From NCBI GenBank assembly GCA_003142375.1, contig PLME01000011.1, positions 81,475 to 145,474 on the forward strand: 64,000 nucleotides of DNA. The letters run 5' to 3'. Source of the stretch: Dehalococcoidia bacterium (GTDB lineage Bacteria; Chloroflexota; Dehalococcoidia; GIF9; UBA5629). The translations under genes were made by a program, and so were the position numbers. Shown here in pieces: positions 5,281 to 48,033 of this stretch. The notes below the pieces were generated by a model. It worked only from the letters and a program-made list of their open reading frames with translations. It searched no databases and had not been told where the DNA came from. Within the stretch, counting starts at the first letter, position 1. Every line of letters starts with the position of its first letter.

Positions 5281-6558
5281 ATGATAAAATGGTACAAGGT
5301 TTCCTCACTACTAGTAGTGGTGGTTATGGTGCTTAGCCTGCTGGCCACGGCCTGCGCTGCTGAGCAGCAGAAGCCGGCACCACCTCAGCCCACAGGACCT
5401 ATCACCATCAATGTCGGTGTACCTATGCCGCTTAGCGGCACAGCAGCGCCATGGGGCCAGATTCCTACCCCACTCCGTGAAGGCTTCATCCAGGTGTTCA
5501 ATAAGGATGGCTTTAAGGTAGGTGACCAGACTTACAACATTAAGATGGTTCAGGTTGACGACGAGAACACGCCTGAGGGCGGCTCGGCCGCCGCCAAAGA
5601 GCTCATAGAGAATGATGGCTGCAAGTTCTTCGTCGGGCACTGGTCATGGAACTTCTCCGCCATTGCAGCTGTGACCAACCCGGCTAAAGTCATCTTTCTC
5701 ACCAGGAACGGCGCTCCTGATGCTTTGCCTGCCAGTTGGGCTGGTGGCGGTGCATATGACCCCAAGACCATGCCTTATGTTGTTTTCGGCACTCCGTCTC
5801 AAGAGGAATTCCTTGCTGACTGCTTCGCGCTTGTCGATGCGTTCCCCAATTACAAGAAGATAGGTTTGGTCGACTCATCAGTGAGCAAAGGTGGTCCGGG
5901 CTGGATTGCCGTGCAGAAGGCGCTCGATAAACAGGGAGTCAGGTGGGCCAGCGAGTGGTTCACGCCTGGCACTACAGACTTTTCTCCCATGCTCACCAGA
6001 TTACATGAGGAAGGTTGTGATATCGTCTTTGTCGCCGGATGGGTCGGTGAATACATGGCCATGCTTAAACAGCGGTGGGAGTTGGGCTACAAGGACATGC
6101 ATATTGCCTGTTCCGGCCCATTCGTAAGCATGGATATATACCAATCAGTTGTCGGCGTCGATGCTTTCGAGGGCGCCATCGGATCATACGAGGCCCCCTG
6201 GGCGTTCAAGAAGACCAAAGTCAACCCAAATATAATCGCCCAGTGCCAGGAAACTTTGAAGATTGCGGCGCAAACGACGGGCGGCCCGTATGACTATACC
6301 GGTGAATTCCCCTGGGTGCCCGCTCACGTAGAGATCCTGACTCAGGCAATGCAGAAGGCCGGCAGTGTCAGCGACCCGGATGCCATAATGAACGCCATCC
6401 GCGGTGGCACCTTTGATACCACTGCAGGTAAATGGACAATGTCCGGTGCACAGACATATGGTTCACCTATAGTTTTCGGAACCCCTGCTTCCTTATGCAG
6501 CATCCAGAACGGCAAAGAAGTATATCTTTCCGAACATCCAATGGAACCGCTTCCGTAA
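5281..6558 (+). CDS. ABC transporter substrate-binding lipoprotein, LivK/LivJ (branched-chain amino acid/amide) family
   Basis: The signal peptide ends LLATAC (lipobox). A periplasmic-binding-protein type I fold is recognisable. It is the first gene of a K-H-M-G-F cassette. Confidence 0.8.
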   Translation: MIKWYKVSSLLVVVVMVLSLLATACAAEQQKPAPPQPTGPITINVGVPMPLSGTAAPWGQIPTPLREGFIQVFNKDGFKVGDQTYNIKMVQVDDENTPEGGSAAAKELIENDGCKFFVGHWSWNFSAIAAVTNPAKVIFLTRNGAPDALPASWAGGGAYDPKTMPYVVFGTPSQEEFLADCFALVDAFPNYKKIGLVDSSVSKGGPGWIAVQKALDKQGVRWASEWFTPGTTDFSPMLTRLHEEGCDIVFVAGWVGEYMAMLKQRWELGYKDMHIACSGPFVSMDIYQSVVGVDAFEGAIGSYEAPWAFKKTKVNPNIIAQCQETLKIAAQTTGGPYDYTGEFPWVPAHVEILTQAMQKAGSVSDPDAIMNAIRGGTFDTTAGKWTMSGAQTYGSPIVFGTPASLCSIQNGKEVYLSEHPMEPLP

Positions 6559-6588
6559 CGATACAGAGCTAAAATAAGGAGAATTGGT

Positions 6589-7452
6589 ATGCCCCCCGCT
6601 GGAATATGGATTGACGGACTGGTTCAAAGTTGCATCTATATGACCATGGCATTCGGCATGGTGCTGGTATTCAGCATACTTGGCATTCTGAACTGGACAC
6701 ACGGCCAGTTCTACATGCTGGGCGCTTTCGTCGTCTATTACGCAGTCACGGCGGCGGGCGTACCTTTCCCCTTGAGCTTACTGATATCTGGGGTAATCGT
6801 CGGAGCATTGGGTATGGTGGTGGAGAAGCTCGTCATCGAGCGCCTCACAGGTCCAGGTTACGGCCTGCTGGCCGTAACCGCAGCCACCATGGCGCTCATC
6901 TTTTTCTTTGAGGGTGCGGCCGGCATGGCTTTTGGCCTTATGGCCAAGGGAATGGCCACCACGCTCCCAGGTGTGCTTGACATGGGTTCATTCAGTATCA
7001 GCTATCAAAAAATTGCCGTCATCATTTTTACCCTGGTTATTATGGTCGCCATGTATATCGTGCTCAACCGCACCAAGGTAGGAAAGGCTATCAGGGCGAC
7101 GGCCCAACAACCGGATGCGGCGAGCTTATACGGCGTCAACGTGGGATGGGTCTCATTGATTGTTATGGGCATCGGCTGTTCACTGGCGGCCATGGCCGGG
7201 GGCATTATGGGACCTGTCCAGTCAGTTGATCCTTTCATGGGACGTATTCCCATGATTATGTCCCTGCTGGCCATTGTCATTGGAGGCCTGGGCAGCCTCA
7301 CCGGCGCCATTGTGGGAGGCATCATACTGGGTCTCCTTAACAGCGTCATAGCATATAAGATTTCCTATTTCTCCGAAGTTGCCCTGTTCTTGCTGGTGAT
7401 TGTTATCTTGCTGATCAGACCGCAAGGCCTGTTTGGAGCCGCCCCGAAATGA
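6589..7452 (+). CDS. branched-chain amino acid ABC transporter permease, LivH family
   Basis: It is a polytopic membrane protein with a LivH-like C-terminus (LLIRPQGLFG). Confidence 0.8.
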   Translation: MPPAGIWIDGLVQSCIYMTMAFGMVLVFSILGILNWTHGQFYMLGAFVVYYAVTAAGVPFPLSLLISGVIVGALGMVVEKLVIERLTGPGYGLLAVTAATMALIFFFEGAAGMAFGLMAKGMATTLPGVLDMGSFSISYQKIAVIIFTLVIMVAMYIVLNRTKVGKAIRATAQQPDAASLYGVNVGWVSLIVMGIGCSLAAMAGGIMGPVQSVDPFMGRIPMIMSLLAIVIGGLGSLTGAIVGGIILGLLNSVIAYKISYFSEVALFLLVIVILLIRPQGLFGAAPK

Positions 7453-8495
7453 TAATAGGGCGCTACTATATAGACCAAAAAAGCGTGGTGCCCAAAATTG
7501 TGATCGGGGCAGTTATTGCCCTGCTTGCTCTTGTGCCGCTATTCACAACCAGTATGGTGACACTTTCCACCCTGATATCAAGCGGCATCTGGTCAATAGC
7601 GGTTATGGGCTTTATTCTGATATTGAGGACCGGCCAGTTCAGCATGGGGCAGGCGGCTTTCATGGCTATAGGCGGCTATGTCTCAGCCATACTCACGGTC
7701 AGACTGGGACTTCCGTACTGGCCAAGTTTTTTAGCGGCGGGTGTTATCTCGGGGATCATAGCTCTAGGTATCGGATTGATTGTGCTGCGTGCGGGGGGCA
7801 CATCTTTCTCAATCATAACAATTGCCTTCGGCGAGATAGTGAGGATTGTGGCCCTGAATTGGGATGATGTCACCCGGGGGGCCTCCGGAATATTAACCAA
7901 ACCGCCGGCGCCTATAACCATAGGGAATTTTGAAATAAACTTCGCTACGAATCTGGTGCCATTCTATTACTTTATGTTCTTTCTGGTAATTGCGTCGGCG
8001 TTGTTCTTCTGGCAAATAGACCGATCTCGTGTAGGCGGAACATTCCGAAGCGTAGCTGCTAACCCCGTACTTGCAGAGCATTTAGGCATTCACCTTATGA
8101 AGTACCGCGTGATTGCATTTACTATGGCTGGCGTCTTCACCGGCTTTGCCGGCGCCTATTACGTCACCTTTATTTCGGTTATAAATCCGCTTATTTTTGA
8201 TTTGTGGAAGTCCGTTCAGATAATGATGATGAGCATTGTAGGCGGCCCAACCTTAATAGTCGGAGGGGCGATCGTAGGATCTACTGTATTGTATTCTCTG
8301 GGTAACTACCTGACCCAACTGCCAGTAGCCAATGTTCAGTATTTGGTGTTCGGCGCTGTGGTTGTGCTGGTGCTGCTGTTTCTCCCCAAAGGAACCGGAC
8401 TGGTTGACCTTTGGGGCAAGTTCTGGCGCAAAGTGTTTAAAGAGCCTGAAGAATATGAAATCCCCGGGGAATTCTCACAGGAAGACGAAGAATAA
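7449..8495 (+). CDS. branched-chain amino acid ABC transporter permease, LivM family
   Basis: It is a membrane protein and overlaps livH by 4 nt. The topology is LivM-like. Confidence 0.8.
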   Translation: MIIGRYYIDQKSVVPKIVIGAVIALLALVPLFTTSMVTLSTLISSGIWSIAVMGFILILRTGQFSMGQAAFMAIGGYVSAILTVRLGLPYWPSFLAAGVISGIIALGIGLIVLRAGGTSFSIITIAFGEIVRIVALNWDDVTRGASGILTKPPAPITIGNFEINFATNLVPFYYFMFFLVIASALFFWQIDRSRVGGTFRSVAANPVLAEHLGIHLMKYRVIAFTMAGVFTGFAGAYYVTFISVINPLIFDLWKSVQIMMMSIVGGPTLIVGGAIVGSTVLYSLGNYLTQLPVANVQYLVFGAVVVLVLLFLPKGTGLVDLWGKFWRKVFKEPEEYEIPGEFSQEDEE

Positions 8496-8512: not shown

Positions 8513-9277
8513 ATGGCTTTATTAGAACTAAACGACGTGACCAAACTCTTCGGCAAACTTGCCGCAGTCGAGGATATCGATCTGCAGGTAGAGGAAGGTG
8601 AGATCCTCGGCATTGTCGGGCCCAACGGCTCGGGCAAGACCACGCTGATCAACTTAATTTCAGGTTATTACAAGCCTACGCGCGGCGACATATATTTTAA
8701 AGGAAGAAAAATATCCGGGCTGAGGCCCGATCAAATAGCCAGGCTGGGCATTGTCAGGACCTTTCAGTCGAATGTGCTCTTTGAAGGTGCTTCAGTAATC
8801 GAGAGCATGATGATCAGTTCCAGGCTGCAGTATAAGACCAGCGACTGGCAGGCCTTCTTCAATACCAGGACCTATAAAGACGAGCAGGAAAAGGTGGTCG
8901 GCAACCTGCTTGAAACGCTGCAGCTGCTGGATATCTTTAACGAGACATTCAGGCCGGCAGCGGCCCTCTCACACGGCTACCAGCGCATGCTGGGAATAGC
9001 CGCGGCCCTGGCTGCCAATCCCAGCGTCCTGATGCTCGACGAACCTACCACCGGCATGAACCACGAAGAAGCCATGTTCGTGGTGGAAAATATTAAAAAG
9101 ATCAACCAGCAGGGAATTACGGTATTGCTGATCGAACACAATATGAAAGTGCTGCTGGGTGTGGCTACCAGGGTGGTCGTCCTGAGCTTCGGCAATAAGA
9201 TCGCCGACGGCGACCCCTACGAAATGATGAGCAAGCCGGAGGTCATCGAGGCATACCTGGGCACGGAGACGGTGTAA
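8513..9277 (+). CDS. ABC transporter ATP-binding protein, LivG family
   Basis: Walker A (GPNGSGKTT), ABC signature (LSHGYQRMLGIA) and Walker B (LMLDEPTTGM) are all present. Confidence 0.85.
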   Translation: MALLELNDVTKLFGKLAAVEDIDLQVEEGEILGIVGPNGSGKTTLINLISGYYKPTRGDIYFKGRKISGLRPDQIARLGIVRTFQSNVLFEGASVIESMMISSRLQYKTSDWQAFFNTRTYKDEQEKVVGNLLETLQLLDIFNETFRPAAALSHGYQRMLGIAAALAANPSVLMLDEPTTGMNHEEAMFVVENIKKINQQGITVLLIEHNMKVLLGVATRVVVLSFGNKIADGDPYEMMSKPEVIEAYLGTETV

Positions 9278-9280: not shown

Positions 9281-9985
9281 ATGCTGGAATTGAAGAACGT
9301 CTGGATCAGGTACGGCAAGAATGTGGCGGTGAGGAAGCTCACCCTGACCGTCAATAAAGGCGATTTCGTGACCATCCTGGGCGCCAACGGCGCCGGCAAG
9401 TCTTCTACACTCAATGCCATCAGCGGACTGGTGAAAATCAAACGGGGAGAGATACATTTTAAAGGGCAAAAAATAAACGGCCTCAAGCCGGGAGCCATAG
9501 CTGCTAGAGGGATTATCCAGATTCCCGAAGGCAGAAAATTGTTCCCGCTCATGAGCGTCATGGAAAACCTGGAGATGGGCGCCTATTTGTGCAAAGATAC
9601 CAAACGTGTCCGGGACTCCTTAGAAAAAGTCCTGACCCTCTTTCCGGTGTTAAAGGAAAAACTCGGCGGCAAAGCGCGCGAACTTAGCGGCGGACAGCAG
9701 CAGATGCTTGCCATTGCACGCGGGTTGATGGCAATACCGGAGTTGCTCATGTTCGATGAACCGTCCCTCGGCTTGAGCCCCTTGCTGCGCCAGCAACTCG
9801 CTGAGAAAATCAAAGAGGTCAGCCGTGAAGGCGTCACCATCGTTCTCGTAGAGCAAAACGCAAGACTTGGCCTGATGTTAGCTACCTATGGTTACGTTAT
9901 GGAAAACGGACAACTGGTACTACAGGGCAAAACTTCGGACTTAATGCAGGACGAAGGTGTGAGGAAGGCGTATCTCGGCGTTTAA
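9281..9985 (+). CDS. ABC transporter ATP-binding protein, LivF family
   Basis: Walker A (GANGAGKSS), signature (LSGGQQQMLAIA) and Walker B (LMFDEPSLGL) are present. Confidence 0.85.
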   Translation: MLELKNVWIRYGKNVAVRKLTLTVNKGDFVTILGANGAGKSSTLNAISGLVKIKRGEIHFKGQKINGLKPGAIAARGIIQIPEGRKLFPLMSVMENLEMGAYLCKDTKRVRDSLEKVLTLFPVLKEKLGGKARELSGGQQQMLAIARGLMAIPELLMFDEPSLGLSPLLRQQLAEKIKEVSREGVTIVLVEQNARLGLMLATYGYVMENGQLVLQGKTSDLMQDEGVRKAYLGV

Positions 9986-10119
9986 CATTTGGTTTAATGG
10001 CGCCGCCATGGCATTAAGCGATGATAAATATGGTAAATGTACCAATTTCGTCGACACGCTAATAATCGAAAATTCGAGAAAATTATTCCTGTGTAAATAA
10101 CAGCGAAAAAGGAGTGATC

Positions 10120-10527
10120 ATGGCAAAATATATGACTCAAGAGTGGATGGATTTATACAAGGATGCACTCAATGCCAGCAAAACGTACGAAGATTCCGCC
10201 AAAACATGGGAGGGTGATTTCTATTTCATTTGTGAGAAGGGCGGCCCGGTAAAAGAAACAATGTATGCCTATGTTGACCTTTATCACGGCAAATGCCGTG
10301 CGGCGGAGATCGTCGACAACCCCAGCAAATATAAACCGGAATTTGTTATATCCACCAATTACACTATTTGGAAGAGGATAGTTTCAGGACAACTGGATTC
10401 CACTCAGGCGCTGATTACAAAGCAGTCCAAACTCACCGGAAACATGGCCAAGATCATGCGCTATACCAAGGCGGCCAATGAAATAACCAACATCACCAAG
10501 CAGCTTCCCACCGAATGGCCGGAATAA
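10120..10527 (+). CDS. SCP2 sterol/lipid-carrier domain protein
   Basis: ATG 10120 follows an AAAAAGGAG RBS. The SCP2 C-terminal motif is present (QALITKQSKLTGNMAKIMRY). The ORF track start is 10114. Confidence 0.6.
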   Translation: MAKYMTQEWMDLYKDALNASKTYEDSAKTWEGDFYFICEKGGPVKETMYAYVDLYHGKCRAAEIVDNPSKYKPEFVISTNYTIWKRIVSGQLDSTQALITKQSKLTGNMAKIMRYTKAANEITNITKQLPTEWPE

Positions 10528-10666: not shown

Positions 10667-12259
10667 ATGAATCTGGCGACATTGGCTGATGATAATATAA
10701 CGAAGTTCGGAGAATATGAGTATCTTCACTATGAAGGACGATGGTATACCAATGTCGAACTGAGCCGTATTGCCAACCGCCTGGGCAACGCACTGAAAAA
10801 ATTGGGTGTAAAAAGGGGCGACCGGGTGGGTACACAGGTATATAACTGCCCGCAAGTGTTGATGGCTTTTCAGGCCGTCCTGAAAATCGGCGCCATAATT
10901 GTACCCATGAATCCCAGCGCCCGGGGGGAAGAGGCAGCACACTTATACCGCGATTCGGGCATTAAGGTATTGATAACTTCCAGCGACTACACTCCGGTAA
11001 TCGATGCAGCACGACCGACGGCGCCCGGACTGGCACATGTTATATTTATTGACAAAGACGGCGTCCCCGGCACTCTCAATTTCGATAAACTAATAGCTGA
11101 TTGCTCCGATCGGCTGGCCGTCGAAGACATGGATACTGATGACGATGCGGCCATGATATACACGGCCGGCACCACCGGCTTGCCTAAAGGCGTGGTGCAT
11201 ACTCATTTCGGGCTCTACTACACGCTGCTGGGTTTTTACGAGACACTCGAGACGATCATTCCGGCCAGGTTTCAGTCGGTGACCCTCACCAAGGATGTCA
11301 GCCTGGACAAAGTAGTCAGAAAGGATTTCGACATCATAGGTATGGAAGTATCGAATATCTGCCTCCTTGTTCTACCGCTGTGCCATATCTATGGAATGAT
11401 GCAGATGTTCTTGAAGTTTTACACGGCGGACAAGCTGATAGTCTTGAGGAGATTTGACCCGGTGGAAATATTCAAGTGCATGGAAAAATTCAAGGTCACC
11501 AGCCTCGACGGCGTTCCTGCCATGTGGATCATGCTTTACAACCATCCCGATATCGATAAGTACGATATGAGCGCTTCCAGATATTTGTCGTGCGGAGGCG
11601 CCCCTATGCCTTTGGAACTTCTGAAAGCCTGGAAACAGAAATTTGGCATCCAGATATGCGAAGGCTGGGGCATGTCTGAGTTGGCTTCTTATGGTACTTC
11701 CATGTTTGCGCGCTCTTTTAAAGACGGATCAGTCGGCAAATTGATGCAGAAGGCAAGCCGGATAAAAATACTGGACGATAACGACCGTGAGGTCCCTACC
11801 GGCCAATGGGGAGAGGTGGTCTTCAAAGGCTTCAATGTTATGAAGTATTACTGGAACCTGCCGGAGGAGACCGCTAGAACGATCAAGAACGGTTGGCTTT
11901 ACACGGGGGATCTCGGCTACTTGGATCAGGAAGGTTATCTTTTCCTGACAGGCCGCAAGAAAGACTTGATAATCAGGGGCGGAGAAAATGTGTTCCCCTC
12001 CGATGTTGAAAATGTCCTTTATAAGAATACTAAGGTGATGGAGTGCGCGGTAATAGGGGTGCCTGATAAGGTCTATGGAGAAGAGATAAAGGCCTTCGTG
12101 GTCCTCAGGCCAGGTGAAAGCGCCACCGAACAGGAGCTCATCAATTTCTGCAAACCACAACTGCCTACCTTTAAGCAGCCTAAATGGATTGTGTTCCAGA
12201 AGTCTTTGCCCAAGAGCGCTGTCGGCAAGATACTTAAAAAAGATCTGAGGAAACTATAA
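10667..12259 (+). CDS. AMP-dependent synthetase/ligase (long-chain fatty acid or aromatic acid CoA ligase, FadD-like)
   Basis: ATG 10667 follows an AGGAGG RBS at 10654-10659. The AMP-binding motif (IYTAGTTGLPKGVVHTH), the TGDLGYLDQEGYLFLTGRKKDLIIRGGENVFP hinge and a C-terminal lysine are present. The ORF track start is 10586. Confidence 0.85.
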   Translation: MNLATLADDNITKFGEYEYLHYEGRWYTNVELSRIANRLGNALKKLGVKRGDRVGTQVYNCPQVLMAFQAVLKIGAIIVPMNPSARGEEAAHLYRDSGIKVLITSSDYTPVIDAARPTAPGLAHVIFIDKDGVPGTLNFDKLIADCSDRLAVEDMDTDDDAAMIYTAGTTGLPKGVVHTHFGLYYTLLGFYETLETIIPARFQSVTLTKDVSLDKVVRKDFDIIGMEVSNICLLVLPLCHIYGMMQMFLKFYTADKLIVLRRFDPVEIFKCMEKFKVTSLDGVPAMWIMLYNHPDIDKYDMSASRYLSCGGAPMPLELLKAWKQKFGIQICEGWGMSELASYGTSMFARSFKDGSVGKLMQKASRIKILDDNDREVPTGQWGEVVFKGFNVMKYYWNLPEETARTIKNGWLYTGDLGYLDQEGYLFLTGRKKDLIIRGGENVFPSDVENVLYKNTKVMECAVIGVPDKVYGEEIKAFVVLRPGESATEQELINFCKPQLPTFKQPKWIVFQKSLPKSAVGKILKKDLRKL

Positions 12260-12296: not shown

Positions 12297-12372
12297 TGGT
12301 CGGGGTGAGTGGATTCGAACCACCGACTTCATGGTCCCAAACCATGCGCGCTAGCCGCTGCGCTACACCCCG
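12297..12372 (-). tRNA. tRNA-Pro (anticodon TGG), CCA encoded
   Basis: The reverse complement reads CGGGGTGTAGCGCAGCGGCTAGCGCGCATGGTTTGGGACCATGAAGTCGGTGGTTCGAATCCACTCACCCCGACCA. The anticodon loop is TTTGGGA. Confidence 0.85.
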
Positions 12373-12444: not shown

Positions 12445-13173
12445 TTACCGGCAATTGGGGCAGACGTCGAAGAACCCTTTTGGTAGGTCCCATTTCTTGC
12501 GGATGTACTCAAGCTGCTTTTCGGGCGCCCATTCAATGCCGCAGACCTTACATTTTTGCAGCCTGTATTTAATTTTCCAGTTGTAGATATAACGATAACC
12601 TTTTTTATCTTCCATTTTGATAGCGCCGGTCGGGCAGGCGTAGTAGCATGAGCCGCAGCCGATGCATGCCTTGGCGCTTTCGAGATAGGGAGATGCGGGT
12701 CCTTTGGTTATGCCGCGGTTCACCAGGCTGATAGCACTGACACCCACTACCTGCTCACAAACCCTGGCGCAGAGGCCGCAGACAATACAGTTTTCCTTGG
12801 TCCAGTATTCCTTTTCGAAGGATGATTTTTCGATGCCGTATTCAGCCGCCAGCTGCTTAATAACCTTGTTTTCCGAACACCTTGCAAGCAGCAGGTCCAG
12901 CAGCATCTTGCGGTTGCCGACTACCCTGGGGGAATCCGTTTCGACTACCAGGCCTTCCTCAACCGGGAAAAGGCATGAGGTCACAATGCGTTTCCTGGTT
13001 CCACGAGTGATCTCAACGATACATAACCGGCAGGCACCATAGGGTTCTACCGCATCAAGGTTGCATAAAGAAGGTATTTTGATGCCGTGAGCCCTGGCCA
13101 CCTGCAATATATACTGGCCCTTCTCGGCCGTATATTTATTGCCGTTTACAGTCAGAGTAACTAATTCACTCAA
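12445..13173 (-). CDS. NuoG-N-terminal-like polyferredoxin (2Fe-2S + 4Fe-4S clusters), no catalytic domain
   Basis: The likely TTG start at 13173 overlaps the nuoF-like stop by 8 nt; alternative ATG starts are 13203 and 13239. The protein begins VTLTVNGNKYTAEKGQYILQVARAHGIKIPSLC (2Fe-2S) and carries CIVCGLCARVCEQ and CIGCGSCYYACP 4Fe-4S motifs. It ends with a CxxC..CPNC ribbon. Confidence 0.65.
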   Translation of the reverse strand: MSELVTLTVNGNKYTAEKGQYILQVARAHGIKIPSLCNLDAVEPYGACRLCIVEITRGTRKRIVTSCLFPVEEGLVVETDSPRVVGNRKMLLDLLLARCSENKVIKQLAAEYGIEKSSFEKEYWTKENCIVCGLCARVCEQVVGVSAISLVNRGITKGPASPYLESAKACIGCGSCYYACPTGAIKMEDKKGYRYIYNWKIKYRLQKCKVCGIEWAPEKQLEYIRKKWDLPKGFFDVCPNCR

Positions 13174-18752: not shown

Positions 18753-18763
18753 TGTCTGACAGC

Positions 18764-36824: not shown

Positions 36825-37177
36825 AGATATACCTCCTCTTAATATAAATATAACTGTTAGTAATAAATTAGAAATATCAGTGTTGCCGGGACTTTTAGGT
36901 AGGATTCGTGACTCCAGAGTTACCGTGGGGATGCGGTAACCGGCCTAGAGTCACCTTCGGTAGATATACTTATTTGCGTGCATCTATACTGCGTAAAAGA
37001 TTAATTTAGTCTGAAGCTTTTTCAGTATATTATATTACCCCAGTATACTGCAACTATGTCAAGTTAACGCATCAAAGATATTAATGTTAAAATATCGACA
37101 ATACTAATACTGGCATTGCAAAAGCGGGGTTCTAATCAATCGTAAGATGGTCTCTATACATTTATGAGGAGGTGGCT

Positions 37178-37477
37178 ATGGCTATATATCTTTTACTTTC
37201 GACTCTGACTGGTGAAGGCAGAAAGGCAATAGAGGAATATCCCGAGAAATTAAAGGAATTAAATAAAGAAGTCGAATTCATGGGTATTAAAATCCTCGCC
37301 CAGTATGCGCTGCTCGGCCAATATGACTTCGTCAACATAGTAGAAGCCCCTTCAAATGAAAAGGCTGCTGAGCTGGCCATACACCTTTCAGCCGGCGGTT
37401 TGCAGAGCCTGACCCTGGCTGCGATTCCCCTGGACAAGCTCATTGAGACCCTTAAAAAGAAGCCCCAGGTATTTTAA
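37178..37477 (+). CDS. GYD domain protein
   Basis: ATG 37178 follows a GAGGAGG RBS. The GYD-family sequence is present (GQYDFVNIVEAPSNEKAAELAIHLSAGG). Confidence 0.65.
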   Translation: MAIYLLLSTLTGEGRKAIEEYPEKLKELNKEVEFMGIKILAQYALLGQYDFVNIVEAPSNEKAAELAIHLSAGGLQSLTLAAIPLDKLIETLKKKPQVF

Positions 37478-40000: not shown

Positions 40001-41171
40001 CGTGCGCCGGAGGATGGCAGATGGGTCCTGGACCAGGCGCATGTTCGAGGAAGCAGCCGTGCTCAAGAAAAAGCATGGTGAACACAACGTTTTCGATCTC
40101 TCCCTGGGGAATCCGATTATTGAACCTCCGGCGGAATTTAAACATGCTTTAAAAAATTTCATGGAAAATCCTTTGCCGGGCAGGCACCGTTATATGGAAA
40201 ACGCCGGTTATCAGGACACGAGGGATGCTGTAGCCAAGCAGGTCTCGCTAGAAAACGGTCTTGACCTTGGAGGTCATGACATCGTCATGACTGTAGGAGC
40301 GGCCGGCGCTATCAACGTCATACTCAAAACCCCGCTTAACGCCGGCGAAGAGGTCATTGTATTCGCACCGTATTTTATGGAGTACGACAACTATATAGAT
40401 AACCACCAGGGCGTGACCAGGGTAGTTAAAACCAGCGATCAATTCTTGCCGGACCTTGGCGATTTAGAGAGAAATATCAATGAAAAGACCAAAGCTGTCA
40501 TCATCAACTCTCCCAACAATCCCACCGGCGTTGTCTACAGTGAAGACTTGTTAAGACAGATAGCAGATATCCTTGTCAGAAAGGAAAAACAATACGGCAC
40601 ATCTATTTACATGATCAGCGACGAAGCCTACAGCAGCCTGATTTACGATGGGCTTAAATATGTACCTGCCCTCAGAATATATCACCGCTGCATGATAGCA
40701 ACGTCCCACTCCAAAGACCTGGCTTTGCCTGGGGAACGTATAGGTTATATTGCAATTAACCCGGAAATAGGGAATAAGGGCGAAATAGTCAGCGGCCTCA
40801 TTTTCTGCAACCGTATACTGGGATTTGTAAATGCCCCCGCCCTCATGCAGAACCTTATCCGCCACCTGCAGCATGTAACCGTATCAATTCCGGAGTATCA
40901 ACAAAAGCGCGATTTCTTGTATAATAGCCTGACTGAAATGGGATACAAGCTTGTAAAACCCCAGGGCGCCTTCTATATGTTTCCGCGGACGCCCATCGAA
41001 AACGACATAGAGTTTGTACACGAATTGCAGAAATCTAATGTCCTGACCGTCCCCGGTCGTGGATTCGGCACCCCCGGCTATTTCCGCATCTCATATTGCG
41101 TCAGCCAGCCAACCCTCGAAGGCTCGCTCTTCGGCTTTAAAAAGGTTGCTGAGCAGTTTAAACTCTTTTAG
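39984..41171 (+). CDS. class I/II PLP-dependent aminotransferase (aromatic/aspartate aminotransferase-like)
   Basis: The GTG start follows a GAGGAGG RBS. A SHSKDLALPGERIGY Lys-PLP motif and the NPTG motif are present. Confidence 0.75.
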   Translation: MSISDNVRRRMADGSWTRRMFEEAAVLKKKHGEHNVFDLSLGNPIIEPPAEFKHALKNFMENPLPGRHRYMENAGYQDTRDAVAKQVSLENGLDLGGHDIVMTVGAAGAINVILKTPLNAGEEVIVFAPYFMEYDNYIDNHQGVTRVVKTSDQFLPDLGDLERNINEKTKAVIINSPNNPTGVVYSEDLLRQIADILVRKEKQYGTSIYMISDEAYSSLIYDGLKYVPALRIYHRCMIATSHSKDLALPGERIGYIAINPEIGNKGEIVSGLIFCNRILGFVNAPALMQNLIRHLQHVTVSIPEYQQKRDFLYNSLTEMGYKLVKPQGAFYMFPRTPIENDIEFVHELQKSNVLTVPGRGFGTPGYFRISYCVSQPTLEGSLFGFKKVAEQFKLF

Positions 41172-41216: not shown

Positions 41217-43109
41217 ATGAAAAACGCGCACACGATTCCACAATTGATACAGGAGAACTACCGTAAGTGGGGTAGCCAGACCGCCATGTGCGTTAAAAAG
41301 CGCGGCATCTGGCATAAGTTCAACTGGAACGAATATTTTAATACGGTAAAATTCTTTTCTCTGGGTTTAACCAGCATCGGGCTCCAGCGGGGCGATGTTG
41401 CATGCATCATCGGGGATAACGAGCCCGAATGGTTCTGGGGAGAATTTGCAGTGCAGGCCGCCGGCGGCATAGCGACTGGCTCTTTTGTCGATTCTATCCC
41501 CTCCGAGCTGAAATATATTGCCGGTCATTCCGGAGCAAGTTTTGCCATAGTAAATGACCAGGAGCAGGCCGACAAATTCCTGGAAATCTGCGCTGAGCTT
41601 CCAGCACTTAAGAAGGTTGTCTACTGGGATGCCAAAGGGCTGAATAACTACGACCACCCCATGCTTATAAGCTTCGAGAATGTAATAGAAGAGGGCAAAG
41701 CATTCGACCGTTCCAACCCCGGACGTTTTGAGGAAAATATTGCACAGGGCCAACCTGATGATACCGCTTTCATTTACTATACTTCCGGCACAACCGGGCT
41801 GCCCAAAGGTGCAATTCTGACTCATCGAGCTTTGATACAGACTGCGCGCGGCTTTACCAGCGTTTATCCCCTATTCAAAGATGATGACCTGGTCTCCAAT
41901 TTCCCGGCCGCCTGGGTGGGCGACAGTTATTTTGCGACTATCCCCCATATCCTGACCGGGGCTCGGCTGAATTTTGCCGAAGAACCTGAAACAATAGCCG
42001 AGGATACACGCGAAGTGGGACCTGATTTTGCCATCTACGGCCCGAGACAGTGGGAGAGCCTGGTCAGCGAAATTCAGGTCAAGATGACCGATGCGCACCC
42101 GCTCAAGAGATTTTTCTATCACATGCTGCTGCCCGTCGGCTATAAGATTGCCGACATGAACTTTCAAAATAAGAAACCGGATGTATTCTGGAGTACTCTT
42201 CATGCCATAGCGTATTACTTGCTGCTGCGGCCTTTAAAAGACAGGCTCGGCCTGAGTAAAGTGAGATTCGCAGTCACCGGCAGCTCCGTTTTAAGCCTCG
42301 ATACCTTTAGACTAATCCATGCTATCGGGATAGAGCTCAGGCAAACTTACGCCAGCACGGAAGCCGGATTCATCTCCTCTCACACCAAGGGAGAGATCGA
42401 TTTTCAGAGCGTAGGCCGTCCGGCGCTGGGCGTTGAAGTACGTATAGCCAGGGACGGAGAATTGCTGGTAAGGAGCGATTGCCTTTTCAAGGAATATTTA
42501 AATGAGCCGGAGAAAACGAGAGCAGTGAAGATCAAAGGCTGGTGCCACACCGGCGACGCCGTAAACATCAATGACAACGGCCACCTGATCTTTCTTGACC
42601 GTCTCGAGCATATGGGTACGCTGGTGACCGGCGCCAGGTATGCACCGCAATATATTGAGGGTAGATTGAGGTTCAGCCCTTACATAAAGGATGCCATGGT
42701 AATTGGCGGCAAGGATAAGTCCTTTGTGGCTGCCATGATCAACATCGACTTCGCCATGGTCGGCAAATGGGCCGAGCGGAAGGGCATCACATATACCACA
42801 TTTGTAGACCTTTCCCAAAAAGAGGAAGTAGCCAACCTGATAAAAAAAGACCTTTCCAGGGTAAACAGCTATTTGCCGGAATTATCCAGGGTAAAGAGAT
42901 ATATGCTTATGCATAAGGAATTCGATCCTGACGAAGCGGAGTTGACCAGGACGCGCAAGCTGCGTCGCGAGTTTATGGAAGTGAGGTATAACCCACTGAT
43001 CGTAGCTATCTATGCCGGGCAAAACAGTTTGAATGTCGAAGCTTCGGTAACCTACAGGGACGGCCGGAAGGGCGTGGTATCGACCGGCATCAGGATATGG
43101 GACCTGTAA
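41217..43109 (+). CDS. AMP-dependent synthetase/ligase, long (~630 aa) FAA1-type acyl-CoA ligase
   Basis: The AMP-binding motif IYYTSGTTGLPKGAILTH and a TGD motif are present. It has a C-terminal extension typical of COG1022-type ligases. Confidence 0.8.
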   Translation: MKNAHTIPQLIQENYRKWGSQTAMCVKKRGIWHKFNWNEYFNTVKFFSLGLTSIGLQRGDVACIIGDNEPEWFWGEFAVQAAGGIATGSFVDSIPSELKYIAGHSGASFAIVNDQEQADKFLEICAELPALKKVVYWDAKGLNNYDHPMLISFENVIEEGKAFDRSNPGRFEENIAQGQPDDTAFIYYTSGTTGLPKGAILTHRALIQTARGFTSVYPLFKDDDLVSNFPAAWVGDSYFATIPHILTGARLNFAEEPETIAEDTREVGPDFAIYGPRQWESLVSEIQVKMTDAHPLKRFFYHMLLPVGYKIADMNFQNKKPDVFWSTLHAIAYYLLLRPLKDRLGLSKVRFAVTGSSVLSLDTFRLIHAIGIELRQTYASTEAGFISSHTKGEIDFQSVGRPALGVEVRIARDGELLVRSDCLFKEYLNEPEKTRAVKIKGWCHTGDAVNINDNGHLIFLDRLEHMGTLVTGARYAPQYIEGRLRFSPYIKDAMVIGGKDKSFVAAMINIDFAMVGKWAERKGITYTTFVDLSQKEEVANLIKKDLSRVNSYLPELSRVKRYMLMHKEFDPDEAELTRTRKLRREFMEVRYNPLIVAIYAGQNSLNVEASVTYRDGRKGVVSTGIRIWDL

Positions 43110-43119: not shown

Positions 43120-43992
43120 ATGGATATATTAATTCAAAATATCATTACGGGCGTTGCCACCGGCATGGTATATGCCCTGATTGCGCTGGGTTTTGCCCTT
43201 ATCTGGAAGTCCAGCCGTGTTGCTAACCTGGCGCTGGGACAATTAGTTCTGATATCCTCATGGTTTACTTACAGCATGCTCGTTCAATTCAAATTTCCGT
43301 TCTGGTTGGGAATGATATTGACCATCGCCTTTGCAATTTTGCTGGGCTGGCTGATTGAGAGACTGGCATTGCGACCACTGATAGGACAGCCGATACTTTC
43401 ACTTATTGCCATAACATTGGGGCTGGCCTATTTCCTGGAGGGTTTCACCGCGTTTATCTGGCCGCAGGGCCAGGGCAACCTGCCCAAAGTCTTCCCACAG
43501 ACTTCAATTCAGATTGGTCCAGCCATGATACAACAGGAATTGCTGTGGGCAGCCGTCATCTCCTTGATTCTATTCATTTTGCTATCGGTCTTTTTTAAAT
43601 ATCACAGGATGGGCATCGCCATGAGGGCCACAGCCGATGACCAGCTGGCTGTCCAGGCCTGCGCCGTTCCGGTAAACCGTGTATTTTCCATGTCGTGGAT
43701 TTTCGCCTGTGTGGTTGCAGCTATCGGCGGTGTCCTCATATCCAGTATCGCAGCTATCAACTATGGGTTAGTCGAAACGGGCTTCAAATCATTTTCGGTG
43801 GTTATCCTGGGAGGAATGGAGTCGTTCCTGGGCTGCATCGTAGCCGGCCCAATAATTGGGTTGTGTGAAACGTTCGGCGGCTCGCAATTCGGCTCAAGCA
43901 TTAAAGAAGTAATACCGTTCATAATCATCGTGATAGTAATTATGATTAAACCCTTTGGATTATTCGGCGAAGAGAGGATTGAGAGGATTTAA
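43120..43992 (+). CDS. branched-chain amino acid ABC transporter permease, LivH family
   Basis: It is a membrane protein with a LivH-like C-terminus (IMIKPFGLFG). Confidence 0.8.
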   Translation: MDILIQNIITGVATGMVYALIALGFALIWKSSRVANLALGQLVLISSWFTYSMLVQFKFPFWLGMILTIAFAILLGWLIERLALRPLIGQPILSLIAITLGLAYFLEGFTAFIWPQGQGNLPKVFPQTSIQIGPAMIQQELLWAAVISLILFILLSVFFKYHRMGIAMRATADDQLAVQACAVPVNRVFSMSWIFACVVAAIGGVLISSIAAINYGLVETGFKSFSVVILGGMESFLGCIVAGPIIGLCETFGGSQFGSSIKEVIPFIIIVIVIMIKPFGLFGEERIERI

Positions 43993-43994: not shown

Positions 43995-45050
43995 ATGAGT
44001 CTGCCCTGCGGTATACGTAATTTCTCATATCATACCGATATAGCCATTATCAGGACCAAAACCCAATGGGTATTGTTCATATTGTTCATGCTGGCGCTAT
44101 TTGTTTTGCCGTTATATTTGCCTAGATCCTGGTTTGACACTGTTAATTCTATCGGTATCCTGCTGATTGCGGTGGTCGGTTTAAACATCCTGATGGGATA
44201 CTGCGGCCAGCTATCACTGGGTCATGCCGGGTTTATGGCAGTTGGCGCATTTACTTCTGCTCTGCTGACCGGCAACCTGCATATGCCGTTCCTGCTGGCG
44301 CTTATTATTTCCGGTCTGTCTGCCGGGATAATCGGCCTTATATTCGGCATCCCTTCCTTGCGCGTGAAAGGGTTTTACCTGGCTATCGTAACAATTGCAG
44401 CCCAATTCATCATTATCTGGATACTTCAGAACTGGACGGATATTACTCACGGCTCCAACGGCCTTGATGTATTGCCGGCCTCAATATTCAATTGGCAATT
44501 CGACAGTGAGATCAAACAATTTTATTTAATATTTACAATTGCTGTAATCAGCATTCTGTTTGCCACGAATCTGGCTAGAAGCCGCATCGGCCGCGCCTTT
44601 ATTGCCATCAGAGATAACGACCTGGCGGCAGAGGTAATGGGAATCAATGTTTTCAGCTACAAGCTGCTGGCCTTCTTCCTGGGCTGTTTTCTGGCAGGCA
44701 TCGCCGGATCCCTGTACTCGCAATATAGAGGTCATATTACTTACGAAGACTTTACGTTTCAGCAATCGATATTGTATATAGGCATGCTCATCATAGGTGG
44801 CCTCGGAAGTTCACTGGGCCCCATACTTGGCACGGTTATCATAGAGACCCTGCAAAAGTCGTTGACTAACACAGTGGCGCCCTGGCTTGAGCATACCATG
44901 ACCTTCATGCCGACCGGCTTTTCTTCCGGCCTCAATCTAATGTTATTCGGCCTGGCTATCATCTTAATCCTGATTTTTGAACCTAGGGGGTTGGCCCATT
45001 TATGGGCATTGTTCAAATCTTCGTACAGGATGTGGCCGTTTTCTTACTAA
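43995..45050 (+). CDS. branched-chain amino acid ABC transporter permease, LivM family
   Basis: It is a membrane protein in the LivM position. Confidence 0.8.
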   Translation: MSLPCGIRNFSYHTDIAIIRTKTQWVLFILFMLALFVLPLYLPRSWFDTVNSIGILLIAVVGLNILMGYCGQLSLGHAGFMAVGAFTSALLTGNLHMPFLLALIISGLSAGIIGLIFGIPSLRVKGFYLAIVTIAAQFIIIWILQNWTDITHGSNGLDVLPASIFNWQFDSEIKQFYLIFTIAVISILFATNLARSRIGRAFIAIRDNDLAAEVMGINVFSYKLLAFFLGCFLAGIAGSLYSQYRGHITYEDFTFQQSILYIGMLIIGGLGSSLGPILGTVIIETLQKSLTNTVAPWLEHTMTFMPTGFSSGLNLMLFGLAIILILIFEPRGLAHLWALFKSSYRMWPFSY

Positions 45051-45118: not shown

Positions 45119-46387
45119 ATGAAGAAGTCCCGTGTAGTCTTGGTAGTCACATTGGTTCTCTTACTTACATCCCTGGTTACCCTGATGTCGGCGTGCACCA
45201 CCCAGCCGTCGGCGGAAAAGAAAGCCTTTAAACTCGGCTTGAGCATTCCCCTGACGGGCCCTGCAGCCGAAAAAGGCGCCCCCATCGGCCATGGTCAACT
45301 CGATGCTTTTAAATACATCAATGATGAGTTGGGCGGAGTTGCCGGATATAAAATCGATCCTGACTGGTACGACACGAATTATGATACACAGAAAGCTACC
45401 GACATCGCCAAGAAACTTATGACGGACGGTTGCCTGTTCTTTACCGTGGTGGCTTCCAAGGATATGAGTGCATCACAGGTAATAGCCAATAGGGCCGGAT
45501 TCCCCGGCATGATATGCTTTAGCTCCCCATCAAACACCCATCCCCCGGCGCATATCTACGCTCAGCTTCCGGATTACGGCGATGATTGGACCGCATTCAC
45601 AAAGTACTATATGCAGAATATCTGGAAGGGTCCGGGCAAACCAAAGATGGCACTCGAGCTGCTGAACAACTCCACAGGTTCCGGAGTCGCTAATGCGGCC
45701 AGGGCCATGGCAGACCAGCTCGGTGTTGAGATTGTTGATACTGAACAACACTCAGCCACCACTATCTCTGAAACAGATGCCCTGAACAGGATCAAAGCTA
45801 AGAATCCCGACATACTCTTTATCTCGAGTACACCTGCTCCTACAGCCATTATTCTGAAGAATGCGCGTGACCTGAACATGATCCCCGGTATGACTGTGGC
45901 CTGTGCGCATGCAAGTTTTACCAAAGCCCTTATCGATGCCGCCGGCAAAACCGTGGCCGAAGGCGTTTATGGCGTCTATCCGACGGTTAACTTTGGGGAC
46001 AACGTGCCGGGCATGGCCAAGATGGTAGAGTACTGTAAGGCCCAGCATCCGGAATATATGGGAAACAATGACTATCTGGTAGGCTGGGCATCCAGCCTTG
46101 TCAATGCGGAAATCTTAAAACAGGCCATACAGAATTCCAATGTCGACGATCTTTTTAAAGGAGACGCTGCTTCATGGCAACTGGCGGAGACCAACGGCTT
46201 TATGAAGGTCAAAGGGTATGATGTAGGCGGATTGCAGGGTCCGGTGGATTTTTCCGGTACTCTTGATAAACGCGGTTCCAAATCCGTCAAAATATTCCAG
46301 ATCCAGAATGGCCTGATGGTCTCACTCTCCGGCTGGGTTGATGCGCCCAATATTCCCTATGAGACCTTCGATTGGTTCGGTAAGTAA
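45119..46387 (+). CDS. ABC transporter substrate-binding lipoprotein, LivK family
   Basis: The signal peptide has a lipobox (LMSACT). A type I PBP fold is recognisable. It lies after the permeases, which is an atypical order. Confidence 0.8.
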   Translation: MKKSRVVLVVTLVLLLTSLVTLMSACTTQPSAEKKAFKLGLSIPLTGPAAEKGAPIGHGQLDAFKYINDELGGVAGYKIDPDWYDTNYDTQKATDIAKKLMTDGCLFFTVVASKDMSASQVIANRAGFPGMICFSSPSNTHPPAHIYAQLPDYGDDWTAFTKYYMQNIWKGPGKPKMALELLNNSTGSGVANAARAMADQLGVEIVDTEQHSATTISETDALNRIKAKNPDILFISSTPAPTAIILKNARDLNMIPGMTVACAHASFTKALIDAAGKTVAEGVYGVYPTVNFGDNVPGMAKMVEYCKAQHPEYMGNNDYLVGWASSLVNAEILKQAIQNSNVDDLFKGDAASWQLAETNGFMKVKGYDVGGLQGPVDFSGTLDKRGSKSVKIFQIQNGLMVSLSGWVDAPNIPYETFDWFGK

Positions 46388-46404: not shown

Positions 46405-47196
46405 ATGTTAAAACTCAACAACATTGAGGTATCGTACCTCAATGTGGTGAAAGTATTGCACGGCATTTCGATCACCGTCGAGAACGGTGTCGTTGTTGCC
46501 CTTCTCGGAGCTAACGGGGCCGGAAAGACGACTACTCTAAAGGCGATTTCCGGCCTCCTCCGCATTGAAGAGGGCGAGATCAATGACGGCACCATTGAAT
46601 GGGACGGAATCCGGATAGATAAGAAAAATGCCGTCGACATCGGCAAACTGGGTATAGTGCAGGCGCTGGAGGGCAGGCGGGTCTTCGAGCACCTCAATGC
46701 CGAGGAAAATCTTCTGGTTGGGGCTTTCAGCCGCTCCAATTTAAAGGATGTTAAGGCTGACTTGAATATGGTCTATTCCTATTTCCCCCGCCTGGAAAGT
46801 CTGAAACACAACATTGCCGGTTATCTATCGGGCGGAGAGCAGCAGATGCTGGTTATCGGCCGGGCCATGATGGCTGCTCCCCGGTTGATGATGCTGGATG
46901 AACCATCGCTGGGCCTGGCGCCCATGGTAGTTGATCAGATATACGACATCATTAAGAGATTCAACATGGATAGAAAAACCGCCATTCTGCTGGTTGAACA
47001 AAACGTGAGGGTTGCCTTGAACACCGCACATTACGGATATGTGATGGAGAACGGGCGGGTAGTTTTGGACGGTTCAGCCGATTACCTGAAAGGCCGTGAA
47101 GACGTGAAGGAATTCTATATGGGTATTTCGGCCTCCGGAGAGAAAAAGAGCTATAAAGACGTCAAGCACTATAAACGGCGAAAAAGGTGGCTCTGA
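46405..47196 (+). CDS. ABC transporter ATP-binding protein, LivF family, with basic C-terminal tail
   Basis: GANGAGKTT, LSGGEQQMLVIG and MMLDEPSLGL are present. The C-terminal tail is KSYKDVKHYKRRKRWL. Confidence 0.85.
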   Translation: MLKLNNIEVSYLNVVKVLHGISITVENGVVVALLGANGAGKTTTLKAISGLLRIEEGEINDGTIEWDGIRIDKKNAVDIGKLGIVQALEGRRVFEHLNAEENLLVGAFSRSNLKDVKADLNMVYSYFPRLESLKHNIAGYLSGGEQQMLVIGRAMMAAPRLMMLDEPSLGLAPMVVDQIYDIIKRFNMDRKTAILLVEQNVRVALNTAHYGYVMENGRVVLDGSADYLKGREDVKEFYMGISASGEKKSYKDVKHYKRRKRWL

Positions 47197-47220
47197 CAGT
47201 TTAGAAGGCCGTCCGCTTCC

Positions 47221-48033
47221 CTATTTTTCTCCCAGGTATGCGGCAATCACTTCAGGATTCCCCGATATCTCCTCGGGGGTTCCCTCGGCTATTTTGCGTC
47301 CGAAATCCAGTACAATAATCCTGTCGGCTAGGTCCATAACCACTCCCATATCGTGCTCAATAAGCACGATAGATTCTACACCATCTCGCAACACGGGTGT
47401 AGCCGGATAAGATTCGCCCTGTCCCTCGAAAATATCATAAATAAAGCGGACGATATCTTCCTTCTCCTCAAGGTTCATACCGGCCATGGGCTCATCCAAA
47501 AGAAGGACCCTGGGCTCCAGGGCCAGCGCCCGGCCCAATTCCACGCGTTTCCTGAGTCCGTAAGGCAAAGAGCTGACTATACTTTTTCTGATATGCTCGA
47601 TCTCAAGGAAGTCAATGATGTCTTCCACAGTTTTACGATGCTCCAACTCTTCCTTTTGAGCAGGCCCGAAATATAAAAATGTACTTAGAATATTCTGCTT
47701 CATCAGGACATGCCGTGCCGCCATAATGTTATCCAGCGTGCTCAGCCCCGAATAAAGCTCAATATTCTGGAAAGTCCTGGCAATTCCCATCCTGGCAATT
47801 TTGTCGGAACGTACCCCGTTGATCTTCCTTTTATTAAATAGAATCTGACCTTTCTGGGGCTTATAGAAGCCGTTAATGCAATTTAACAGGCAGGTCTTTC
47901 CGGCTCCATTGGGCCCAATGATAGCCAGCACCTCGTTCTTTTTGATCTCCAGGTTAATATCGGTCAGAGCCCTTACGCCCCCGAACCACAGTGAAAGGTC
48001 CTTGATACTTAAAGCTGTTTCTTTCCCATTCAT
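47221..48033 (-). CDS. ABC transporter ATP-binding protein, LivG family (inverted relative to its cassette)
   Basis: GPNGAGKTC and LLLDEPMAGM are present. An insertion GQGESYPATPVLRDGVE precedes the H-loop. It is convergent with livF. Confidence 0.8.
   Translation of the reverse strand: MNGKETALSIKDLSLWFGGVRALTDINLEIKKNEVLAIIGPNGAGKTCLLNCINGFYKPQKGQILFNKRKINGVRSDKIARMGIARTFQNIELYSGLSTLDNIMAARHVLMKQNILSTFLYFGPAQKEELEHRKTVEDIIDFLEIEHIRKSIVSSLPYGLRKRVELGRALALEPRVLLLDEPMAGMNLEEKEDIVRFIYDIFEGQGESYPATPVLRDGVESIVLIEHDMGVVMDLADRIIVLDFGRKIAEGTPEEISGNPEVIAAYLGEK

Follow-up and report, generated by a model that had tools for sequence, protein, structure and literature searches.

When the genes of a Liv-type transporter stand beside the gene of an AMP-forming acyl-CoA ligase, does the transporter import amino acids, or does it supply carboxylic acids to the ligase? 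This question is raised three times by a 64-kb stretch of DNA (64,000 nucleotides of contig PLME01000011.1, hereafter the window) from an uncultured peat-soil member of the Dehalococcoidia (Chloroflexota). It carries three cassettes for the Liv subunits K (binding protein), H and M (permeases) and G and F (ATPases), together with the ligases L1, L2 and L3; labels such as L010 and L095 denote comparison loci from relatives and are distinct from the ligases. On balance, the cassettes probably encode three separate HAAT importers for carboxylic acids, which would be imported and then activated as CoA esters. For cassettes 1 and 3 the imported substrates are most likely carboxylic acids and not alpha-amino acids; the substrate class of cassette 2 is less certain. 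Gene content, intact motifs and conserved linkage are observed directly, and it is by inference that we assign a class of substrate and link transport to ligation. In the proposed mechanism, a membrane-anchored lipoprotein K would capture the acid outside the cell, the H/M permease pair would import it using power supplied by the G/F ATPases, and a cytoplasmic AMP-forming ligase would convert acid, ATP and CoA to acyl-CoA, AMP and pyrophosphate (PPi), trapping the acid and feeding it into metabolism.

We determined gene content with a Pfam scan of approximately 60 open reading frames (ORFs). The scan located, at their predicted coordinates, the 15 transporter genes and three AMP-forming ligases of the original prediction, an earlier reading of the same DNA (Table 1), and these account for every AMP-binding ligase and every Liv cassette of the window. 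Each cassette is complete in the five components of a HAAT importer of LivKHMGF type, TC 3.A.1.4 (a binding protein, two BPD_transp_2 permeases and two ATPases), and the Walker A, Walker B and signature motifs of the ATPases are intact in all of them. The single co-directional five-gene operon by which HAAT systems are recognized is found in cassettes 1 and 2, and not in cassette 3, where G3 lies on the opposite strand; the best NCBIfam matches of G3 and F3 are LivG and LivF. All three ligases have both domains, with the ANL motifs A3, A5, A7 (TGD) and A10, or its ACSL equivalent, intact. The P-loops of L1, L2 and L3 read YTAGTTGLPKG, TSGTTGTPK and TSGTTGLPK, and their catalytic Lys residues belong to the motifs PKSAVGKI, PRNPTGKI and, of ACSL type, TRTRKLRR, respectively. 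The predicted start of L1 at 10667, an ATG with a good ribosome-binding site, is better than one at 10586.

The predicted physical pairing of transporter and ligase is present at all three cassettes, but strict adjacency fails for cassette 1, where the SCP2 gene lies between F1 and L1. We calculated the probability of this arrangement by permuting the approximately 47 gene units of the window. Three ligases would each fall beside a different cassette by chance with a P-value of about 0.0005 when the two must be direct neighbours and about 0.004 when a single intervening gene is allowed.

We then compared the cassettes with one another by all-against-all BLASTP. K1 and K2 are 28% identical, the highest value among the binding proteins, and K3 has no BLASTP match to K1 or K2 at 1e-3. 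The other identities are 46% between G1 and G2, 38% between G3 and either of them, 50% between F1 and F2, 30% between L1 and L2, and 22–23% between L3 and L1 or L2; the C-terminal domain of L3 is AMP-binding_C_3, unlike those of L1 and L2 (AMP-binding_C). These identity levels rule out a recent duplication of one module. The cassettes are paralogous at the family level, as had been proposed, but they are old and distant paralogues. The proposal that they form a family of modules, implying one duplicated unit, did not survive the comparison: the cassettes are not mutual duplicates, and cassette 3 is a separate, ancient type with an ACSL-like ligase. G1 and G2 do begin with the ATPase peptides that were quoted to illustrate long identical runs, but these runs are the N-terminal strand and Walker A motif that are universally conserved in ABC ATPases.

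Conservation of the ligase linkage is most extensive for cassette 3. We scanned for L3 relatives using one genome per species and used the best 80 of 262 relatives as cassette 3 loci; these 80 are nearly all metagenome-assembled genomes (MAGs) of Dehalococcoidia or Chloroflexota, with L3 identities of 71–95%, and every close L3 relative is annotated to one of these two taxa. The identical L3 protein occurs on contigs of several peat and permafrost metagenomes and in MAG GCA_003171355.1. The order L-H-M-K-F is colinear in 49 of the 50 Dehalococcoidia loci with enough downstream sequence. In Dehalococcoidia, 37 of 37 loci have a G3 orthologue downstream of F3 and in inverted orientation, at a distance of 17–3064 bp from F3, and therefore the inversion is ancestral in Dehalococcoidia and not a local rearrangement. 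Judging from these genomes, the LivG gene of the cassette 3 class appears to have moved to the far end and to have been inverted.

The same type of module is present in another phylum. A tblastn search of L3 against plasmids gave 133 records, and we inspected four alphaproteobacterial loci: Nitratireductor thuwali NTH_RS22340-22315, Marinovum algicola MALG_03765-03770, Azospirillum brasilense D9623_RS29065-29040 and Xanthobacter Py2 Xaut_5039-5034. Like cassette 3, these modules comprise six genes and include an ACSL/FadD11-like ligase of about 630–660 aa, to which L3 is 39% identical over its full length. Their gene order is G-ligase-H-M-K-F in three loci and ligase-G-H-M-K-F in one, on a single strand throughout, so G comes first or second, whereas in cassette 3 it is inverted downstream of F. 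In full-length tblastn comparisons of two plasmid loci with cassette 3, the identities are 57% (G), 52% (F), 40% (M), 39% (ligase) and 30% (H), and all five match cassette 3 much better than cassettes 1 or 2; for the binding protein of these two loci, tblastn detected no similarity to K3.

The surroundings of the two types differ, with beta-oxidation or PaaK-like genes beside the alphaproteobacterial modules and IorAB plus an aminotransferase beside cassette 3. Genes for acyl-CoA dehydrogenase, enoyl-CoA hydratase, thiolase and dienoyl-CoA reductase surround the module in two of the four plasmid loci. The other two adjoin a second, shorter ligase gene of about 410 aa (L097:13470-14699 and L098:5336-6586), annotated in Xanthobacter as a putative phenylacetate-CoA ligase, and the embedded ligase of these two modules may not be the sole or pathway-specific activating enzyme. 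Cassette 3 has the composition of an ACSL-embedded G/L/H/M/K/F module, as defined here by genome comparison, and its G, H, M and F have orthologues in the other phylum. It fits the description of an old cross-phylum module with an ACSL-like ligase built into the operon. In the full-text literature we found no experimental study of the ACSL-embedded module, which has been annotated only, and for liv-ligase clusters of Dehalococcoidia the same literature gave only general background.

Cassette 1 is conserved in a different manner. In a syntenic relative (L095/L096), TetR, two tandem K, H, M, G, F, SCP2 and ligase genes follow one another in order, with identities to the window of 87% for G, 90% for F, 93% for SCP2, 82% for L1, 72% for H, 62% for M and 52–55% for the two copies of K. 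In two distant contigs (L088 and L089), one of which matches a Syntrophobacteraceae-annotated protein, K-H-M-G-F is followed by an AMP-forming ligase; their K proteins are 54–60% identical to K1, and the SCP2 copies beside them are 70–72% identical to that of the window. Among the homologues, one from Desulfobacteraceae is an orphan binding protein. The K1-type cassettes of L089 and L095 are likewise flanked by a TetR_C_24 gene, and the second TetR gene of the window resembles Bacillus-type FadR weakly (44 bits, cutoff 200). Both the SCP2 carrier fold and the presence of TetR/FadR-like regulators hint that the substrate of cassette 1 is lipophilic. Taken together, the loci describe cassette 1 as a conserved K-H-M-G-F-SCP2-ligase unit with variable parts.

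The binding proteins inform the substrate class. K1, K2 and K3 all have a signal peptide ending in a lipobox-like Cys (...LLATAC, ...FMVAC and ...LMSAC), and lipoprotein binding proteins are expected in a monoderm cell. Their scores against the NCBIfam LivJ/K model (NF011933, cutoff 477 bits) are only 69, 40 and 35 bits, respectively. In LivK, we take Ser79, Thr102, Tyr202 and Glu226 to be the residues that hold the amino-acid zwitterion, with Glu226 binding the alpha-ammonium group. We aligned each K family by hhalign with LivK, 4N0Q and 3IP5, and also by phmmer, at about 20% identity. Glu226 aligns with Ser278 in K1, Met266 in K2 and His264 in K3, and so with Glu in none; His264 of K3 is conserved within its family, as is Lys52 at the LivK Trp18 site. 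Tyr202 aligns with Trp (K1), Ala (K2) and Thr (K3). The absent equivalent of Glu226 favours carboxylic acids over amino acids as the predicted substrates of the K proteins.

The ligases indicate the chemistry more than the substrate. The best NCBIfam match of L1 and L2 is PRK06187, with 447 and 433 bits, just below the cutoff of 476, and their nearest solved structure is FadD13 (E 2e-76 for L1 and 1e-74 for L2). Close seconds to FadD13 are 4-coumarate- and feruloyl-CoA ligases, with FadD5-type enzymes also near, and on these matches L1 and L2 may accept aromatic substrates. Benzoate-CoA ligase structures match L1 with an E-value of 1e-44, and no aromatic-acid CoA ligase (benzoate, 4-hydroxybenzoate or phenylacetate) is among the top 25 NCBIfam matches of the ligases. 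The E. coli-type FadD equivalog (NF006523, cutoff 884) scores 267, 245 and 71 bits for L1, L2 and L3. For L3, the best NCBIfam match is FadD11-like (237 bits against 950), with no close solved relative. We attempted to assign ligase specificity from NCBIfam and PDB matches and rejected the approach: L1 and L2 fall in a generic FadD13/4CL/feruloyl-CoA group.

The original prediction of uptake-and-activation modules for organic acids thus stands for cassettes 1 and 3, where the ligase linkage is conserved far beyond this genome, the LivJ/K Glu is missing and the LivJ/K scores are low, and does not extend to cassette 2. By the same comparisons, a conserved importer-ligase unit is well supported for cassettes 3 and 1 and doubtful for cassette 2 with L2.

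Several observations weigh against importers of carboxylic acids tied to ligases, and some of them concern cassette 2. In relative L010, whose L3 is 91% identical, the gene order is AspRS-L2-GYD-IorA and the transporter is absent; comparing L010:2242-6245 with positions 28533-37477 of the window, only 228 bp separate L2 from the GYD gene, and therefore cassette 2 is a 4.8-kb indel between them. L2 is ancestral at its site; relatives vary in the cassette 2 transporter, which some carry and one lacks. Three homologues of K2 (42–57% identity) sit with FAD_binding_2 flavoproteins and ferredoxins, with no AMP-forming ligase in the operon. K2 also has Ser at the equivalents of both Ser79 and Thr102, alone among the three binding proteins. 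From these loci, the pairing of cassette 2 with L2 is not conserved and looks incidental, and the transporter probably works independently of its neighbouring ligase.

For cassette 1, the partner is not fixed: the ligases of the distant K1-type loci are only 31–33% identical to L1 and not orthologous to it, and what is conserved is the position of the ligase and not the enzyme itself. The synteny of cassette 3 is in part merely inherited, as the 80 loci belong to one class and keep tgt and ubiA, and the aminotransferase and IorAB enzyme (IOR) beside it also fit amino-acid catabolism. The Glu226 alignments, at about 20% identity, carry further uncertainty, as the two aligners disagree on Ser79 and Thr102 in K1. 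PDB sequence searches of K1 to K3 gave only distant matches (E 1e-9 to 1e-12) with mixed ligands. The AlphaFold2 models of K1 and K2 are confident (pLDDT 89.7 and 92.6), and Foldseek searches of these models against the PDB returned Leu-, 4-hydroxybenzoate-, vanillate-, urea- and 2-oxoacid-binding proteins together (E 1e-19 to 1e-21). Because ligands are indistinguishable by score, we dropped the naming of a substrate from solved relatives or fold neighbours; the earlier statement that specificity is unreadable from sequence was borne out by these mixed ligands. The Pfam scan found no benzoyl-CoA reductase, hydratase/lyase or beta-oxidation genes in the 64-kb window.

A competing explanation, which we consider unlikely, is amino-acid fermentation. 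The cassettes, or at least cassettes 2 and 3, would import aromatic or branched-chain amino acids, the aminotransferase and IorAB would convert them to acyl-CoA, an ADP-forming synthetase (ACD) would recover ATP, and the AMP-forming ligases would be unrelated or belong to other pathways. The route from aminotransferase through IOR to ADP-forming synthetase is the accepted one for fermentation, and work on Calditenuaceae connects the same three steps with an expanded set of liv cassettes (PMC12979851). In the window, both Ior proteins pass their NCBIfam equivalog cutoffs, the aminotransferase is placed in the Asp/aromatic class I group (the searches did not support calling it specifically aromatic), and cassette 3 is followed, after 2.1 kb, by an ACD-alpha-like gene. 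Relative to the Ior genes, cassette 2 is divergent and cassette 3 co-directional, K2 keeps the two Ser residues, and ACD-like genes are also found near K2-type cassettes elsewhere (L090 and L091). However, L3 is embedded between the aminotransferase and H3, and the ligase stays in the transporter operon where no Ior genes are nearby and in the Alphaproteobacteria. The amino-binding Glu is missing from all three K proteins, with a conserved His in K3, and the ACD-like gene lies on the other strand, in a housekeeping tgt-ubiA string, with no ATP-grasp beta partner nearby.

The context of cassette 3, and perhaps that of L2, could instead reflect anabolic salvage, an idea that we regard as quite unlikely. 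Aryl-acetates or branched short-chain acids from peat would be imported, activated, reductively carboxylated by IorAB and aminated to Phe, Tyr, Trp or branched-chain amino acids, with IorA-IorB-aminotransferase-L3-H3-M3-K3-F3 forming one operon. The IorA, IorB and aminotransferase genes are directly upstream of L3 on the same strand, with gaps of at most 45 bp or overlaps; L3 is 45 bp from the aminotransferase and 10 bp from H3, and the four activities form one co-directional string with gaps of at most 68 bp. An aminotransferase gene immediately precedes L3 in 16 of 47 loci, IorA occurs no more than 10 kb ahead of L3 in 28 of 39, and L2 of L010 stands directly beside GYD-IorA where the transporter is absent. 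Aryl-acid assimilation through a CoA ligase and IOR is documented in methanogens, as cited in PMC6737245, and an ATP-costly ABC importer with an AMP-forming ligase would suit high-affinity scavenging. Yet L3 is ACSL/FadD11-like and not a PaaK-type phenylacetate-CoA ligase, the alphaproteobacterial module sits with beta-oxidation genes and not with IOR, and the direction of IOR is unreadable from sequence. The Ior linkage is loose in many Dehalococcoidia (1–7 kb or absent) and may be inherited synteny only: because all loci belong to one class, and because tgt and ubiA are conserved neighbours too, despite having no obvious connection with cassette 3, it is weak functional evidence.

Extending the carboxylic-acid reading, one may picture cassette 3 as a transport-coupled thioesterification machine in which the ligase is a functional, perhaps even physical, sixth subunit, wired to IorAB and the aminotransferase as an acid-to-amino-acid salvage operon. 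The substrate would be trapped as its CoA ester on emerging, and the ligase is in the operon from Alphaproteobacteria to Chloroflexota; this picture is speculative and rather improbable. Mere coincidence, with functionally unrelated ligases and cassettes from two large gene families ending up as neighbours, is very improbable. Both families are abundant in anaerobic degraders, the pairing of cassette 2 with L2 breaks down in relatives, and our promoter and terminator scans, whose counts were at the level of shuffled sequence, give no positive operon support. Coincidence is countered by the permutation P-values and by the conservation across phyla of the ligase linkage of cassettes 1 and 3.

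Table 1. Positions in the window of the three cassettes, their ligases and neighbouring genes, with family assignments.
Feature	Coordinates	Strand	Family or remark
TetR-family gene, candidate regulator	3573-4199	+	TetR_N + TetR_C_24; upstream of cassette 1
TetR-family gene (second), candidate regulator	4189-4911	-	TetR_N + TetR_C_24; upstream of cassette 1
K1, lipoprotein-type substrate-binding protein	5281-6558	+	Peripla_BP_6, E 7e-31
H1 permease	6589-7452	+	BPD_transp_2, full length
M1 permease	7449-8495	+	BPD_transp_2, full length; 4-bp overlap with H1
G1 ATPase	8513-9277	+	ABC_tran + BCA_ABC_TP_C tail
F1 ATPase	9281-9985	+	ABC_tran
SCP2-domain protein (lipid/acyl carrier fold)	10114-10527	+	PF02036, E 4e-9
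L1, AMP-forming acyl-CoA synthetase	10667-12259	+	AMP-binding + AMP-binding_C
L2, AMP-forming acyl-CoA synthetase	30459-32015	-	AMP-binding + AMP-binding_C; 50 bp downstream of F2
F2 ATPase	32066-32776	-	LivF-type
G2 ATPase	32781-33545	-	LivG-type, BCA_ABC_TP_C tail
M2 permease	33548-34585	-	BPD_transp_2
H2 permease	34566-35459	-	BPD_transp_2
K2 binding protein	35574-36824	-	Peripla_BP_6
GYD-domain protein	37172-37477	+	adjoins IorA or L3 in most Dehalococcoidia loci, either orientation
IorA	37558-39387	+	TIGR03336, 695 bits against cutoff 651
IorB	about 39380-40000	+	NF005322, 241 bits against cutoff 237
Class I aminotransferase	39984-41171	+	PRK06836, 534 bits against cutoff 376
L3, ACSL/FadD11-like AMP-forming ligase	41217-43109	+	AMP-binding + AMP-binding_C_3; first gene of cassette 3
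H3 permease	43120-43992	+	BPD_transp_2
M3 permease	43995-45050	+	BPD_transp_2
K3 binding protein	45119-46387	+	Peripla_BP_6
F3 ATPase	46405-47196	+	LivF-type
G3, LivG-type ATPase	47221-48033	-	ABC_tran + BCA_ABC_TP_C, E 6e-13; convergent with F3, end of tgt transcription unit
ADP-forming acyl-CoA synthetase alpha-like gene	49293-50738	-	CoA_binding + Succ_CoA_lig, 346 bits against cutoff 567

Further features of the cassettes and of their relatives were recorded in the same comparisons. Ahead of the single H-M-G-F-SCP2-ligase set, the L095 locus (L095:6649-9257, the same locus as L096) carries its two K1-like genes in tandem. In L088:6003-8953 and L089:4847-8339, genes for SCP2, an Fe-alcohol dehydrogenase and a tungsten-type aldehyde:ferredoxin oxidoreductase precede the K1-type cassette, which suggests an alcohol-aldehyde-acid-CoA route around that transporter; the latter two genes are absent from the window. 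Divergence is mosaic, as the substrate-contacting K, H and M change much faster than G, F, the ligase and SCP2 (cassette 1 in L095 and cassette 3 in L012-L014). L010 and L011 display the opposite pattern, with a cassette 3 block that is 86–98% identical and flanking AspRS, IorA, IorB and tgt genes at 66–84%. This mosaic divergence suggests that cassettes may have been exchanged between lineages. The 114-bp gap between K2 and H2 contains a perfect 16-bp hairpin at 35481-35516 (minimum free energy −35.4 kcal/mol, z = −6.0) that lacks a U-run; it is identical in L007-L009 and has a variant stem in L012 and L015. This hairpin may serve to stabilise or process the mRNA and so favour production of the binding protein over that of the membrane components. 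An Rfam scan matched only the four tRNAs and no riboswitches.

Around the cassettes, the window encodes POR, a NuoEF-like complex, IorAB, the aminotransferase and housekeeping genes. We ruled out a tie between cassette 1 and the nearby POR and NuoEF-like genes, which lie on the opposite strand, beyond a tRNA-Pro gene, and belong to central metabolism. That tRNA-Pro gene (12297-12372, minus strand) abuts the end of L1. A tRNA-Arg and two tRNA-Ser genes occupy 18513-18953; therefore, the ORF at 18682-19089 (minus strand) is spurious, and the patatin gene starts after 18953. A NuoF/HydB-like flavoprotein gene (13166-15025, minus strand) is split by one in-frame TAG at 14063-14065 (...LEGKVG*PRAKY...) and is intact in the syntenic relative L095 as a 619-aa ORF; the split gene carries a nonsense mutation, is a pseudogene or reflects an assembly error. 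With a membrane H+-pyrophosphatase (57635-59779, plus strand, 820 bits), the cell could regain energy from the PPi that the three AMP-forming ligases generate. Such energy recovery from ligase PPi has been proposed for syntrophs.

Peat, sediments and aquifers harbour abundant non-dehalogenating Dehalococcoidia, and this lineage is uncultured; the acids that it scavenges bear on carbon turnover in thawing peat. The K1/SCP2/L1 unit and the widely conserved unit of ligase-H-M-K-F plus G are two well-defined targets for ligand screening. They also urge caution in metagenome-based metabolic reconstruction, as not every 'liv' cassette represents amino-acid transport.

That a Liv-type importer and a CoA ligase can be paired to handle organic acids is an established concept for Rhodopseudomonas palustris and denitrifying aromatic degraders, and the three units described here are new, uncharacterised members. 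In Azoarcus, the bzd and mbd clusters place a transporter and ligase inside an anaerobic aromatic catabolic cluster. The R. palustris bad/hba/cou and Azoarcus bzd/mbd systems encode the downstream pathway in the cluster, whereas the window does not. The R. palustris background given with the original prediction is backed by thermal-shift data, in which the ligands of most COG0683 'branched-chain amino acid' binding proteins proved to be aromatic, fatty or dicarboxylic acids and not Leu, Ile or Val (PMC3223731). There, CouP (RPA1789) is found with the p-coumarate-CoA ligase RPA1787, and RPA3723/3724 adjoin pimFABCDE with the PimA ligase (PMC3223731); the tandem K1-like genes of L095 recall the tandem binding proteins RPA3723-3725 of the same study. 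Those systems and the present cassettes share a HAAT-type ABC transporter with an AMP-forming CoA ligase encoded nearby. However, the binding proteins here are only 16–21% identical to the solved R. palustris ones, the R. palustris systems lie inside full catabolic clusters and these three cassettes outside any, and the present host is a monoderm member of the Chloroflexota whose binding proteins are lipoproteins, unlike those of R. palustris.

The E. coli LivJ/LivK-HMGF system resembles the cassettes in its five components, Pfam families, BCA_ABC_TP_C tail and type I binding fold (hhalign probability 97–99.5%); the cassettes differ from it in their low LivJ/K scores, missing Glu226, adjacent ligase and lipoprotein anchor. 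In methanogens, aryl acids are assimilated by a phenylacetyl-CoA ligase, IOR and an aminotransferase, according to work cited in PMC6737245. Cassette 3 likewise has a CoA ligase, IorAB and an aminotransferase encoded together, but its ligase is ACSL-like and not PaaK-like, and an ABC importer lies within the string. What distinguishes the present locus from these known systems is the absence of an adjacent catabolic pathway, the Ior/aminotransferase context and the inverted LivG of cassette 3.

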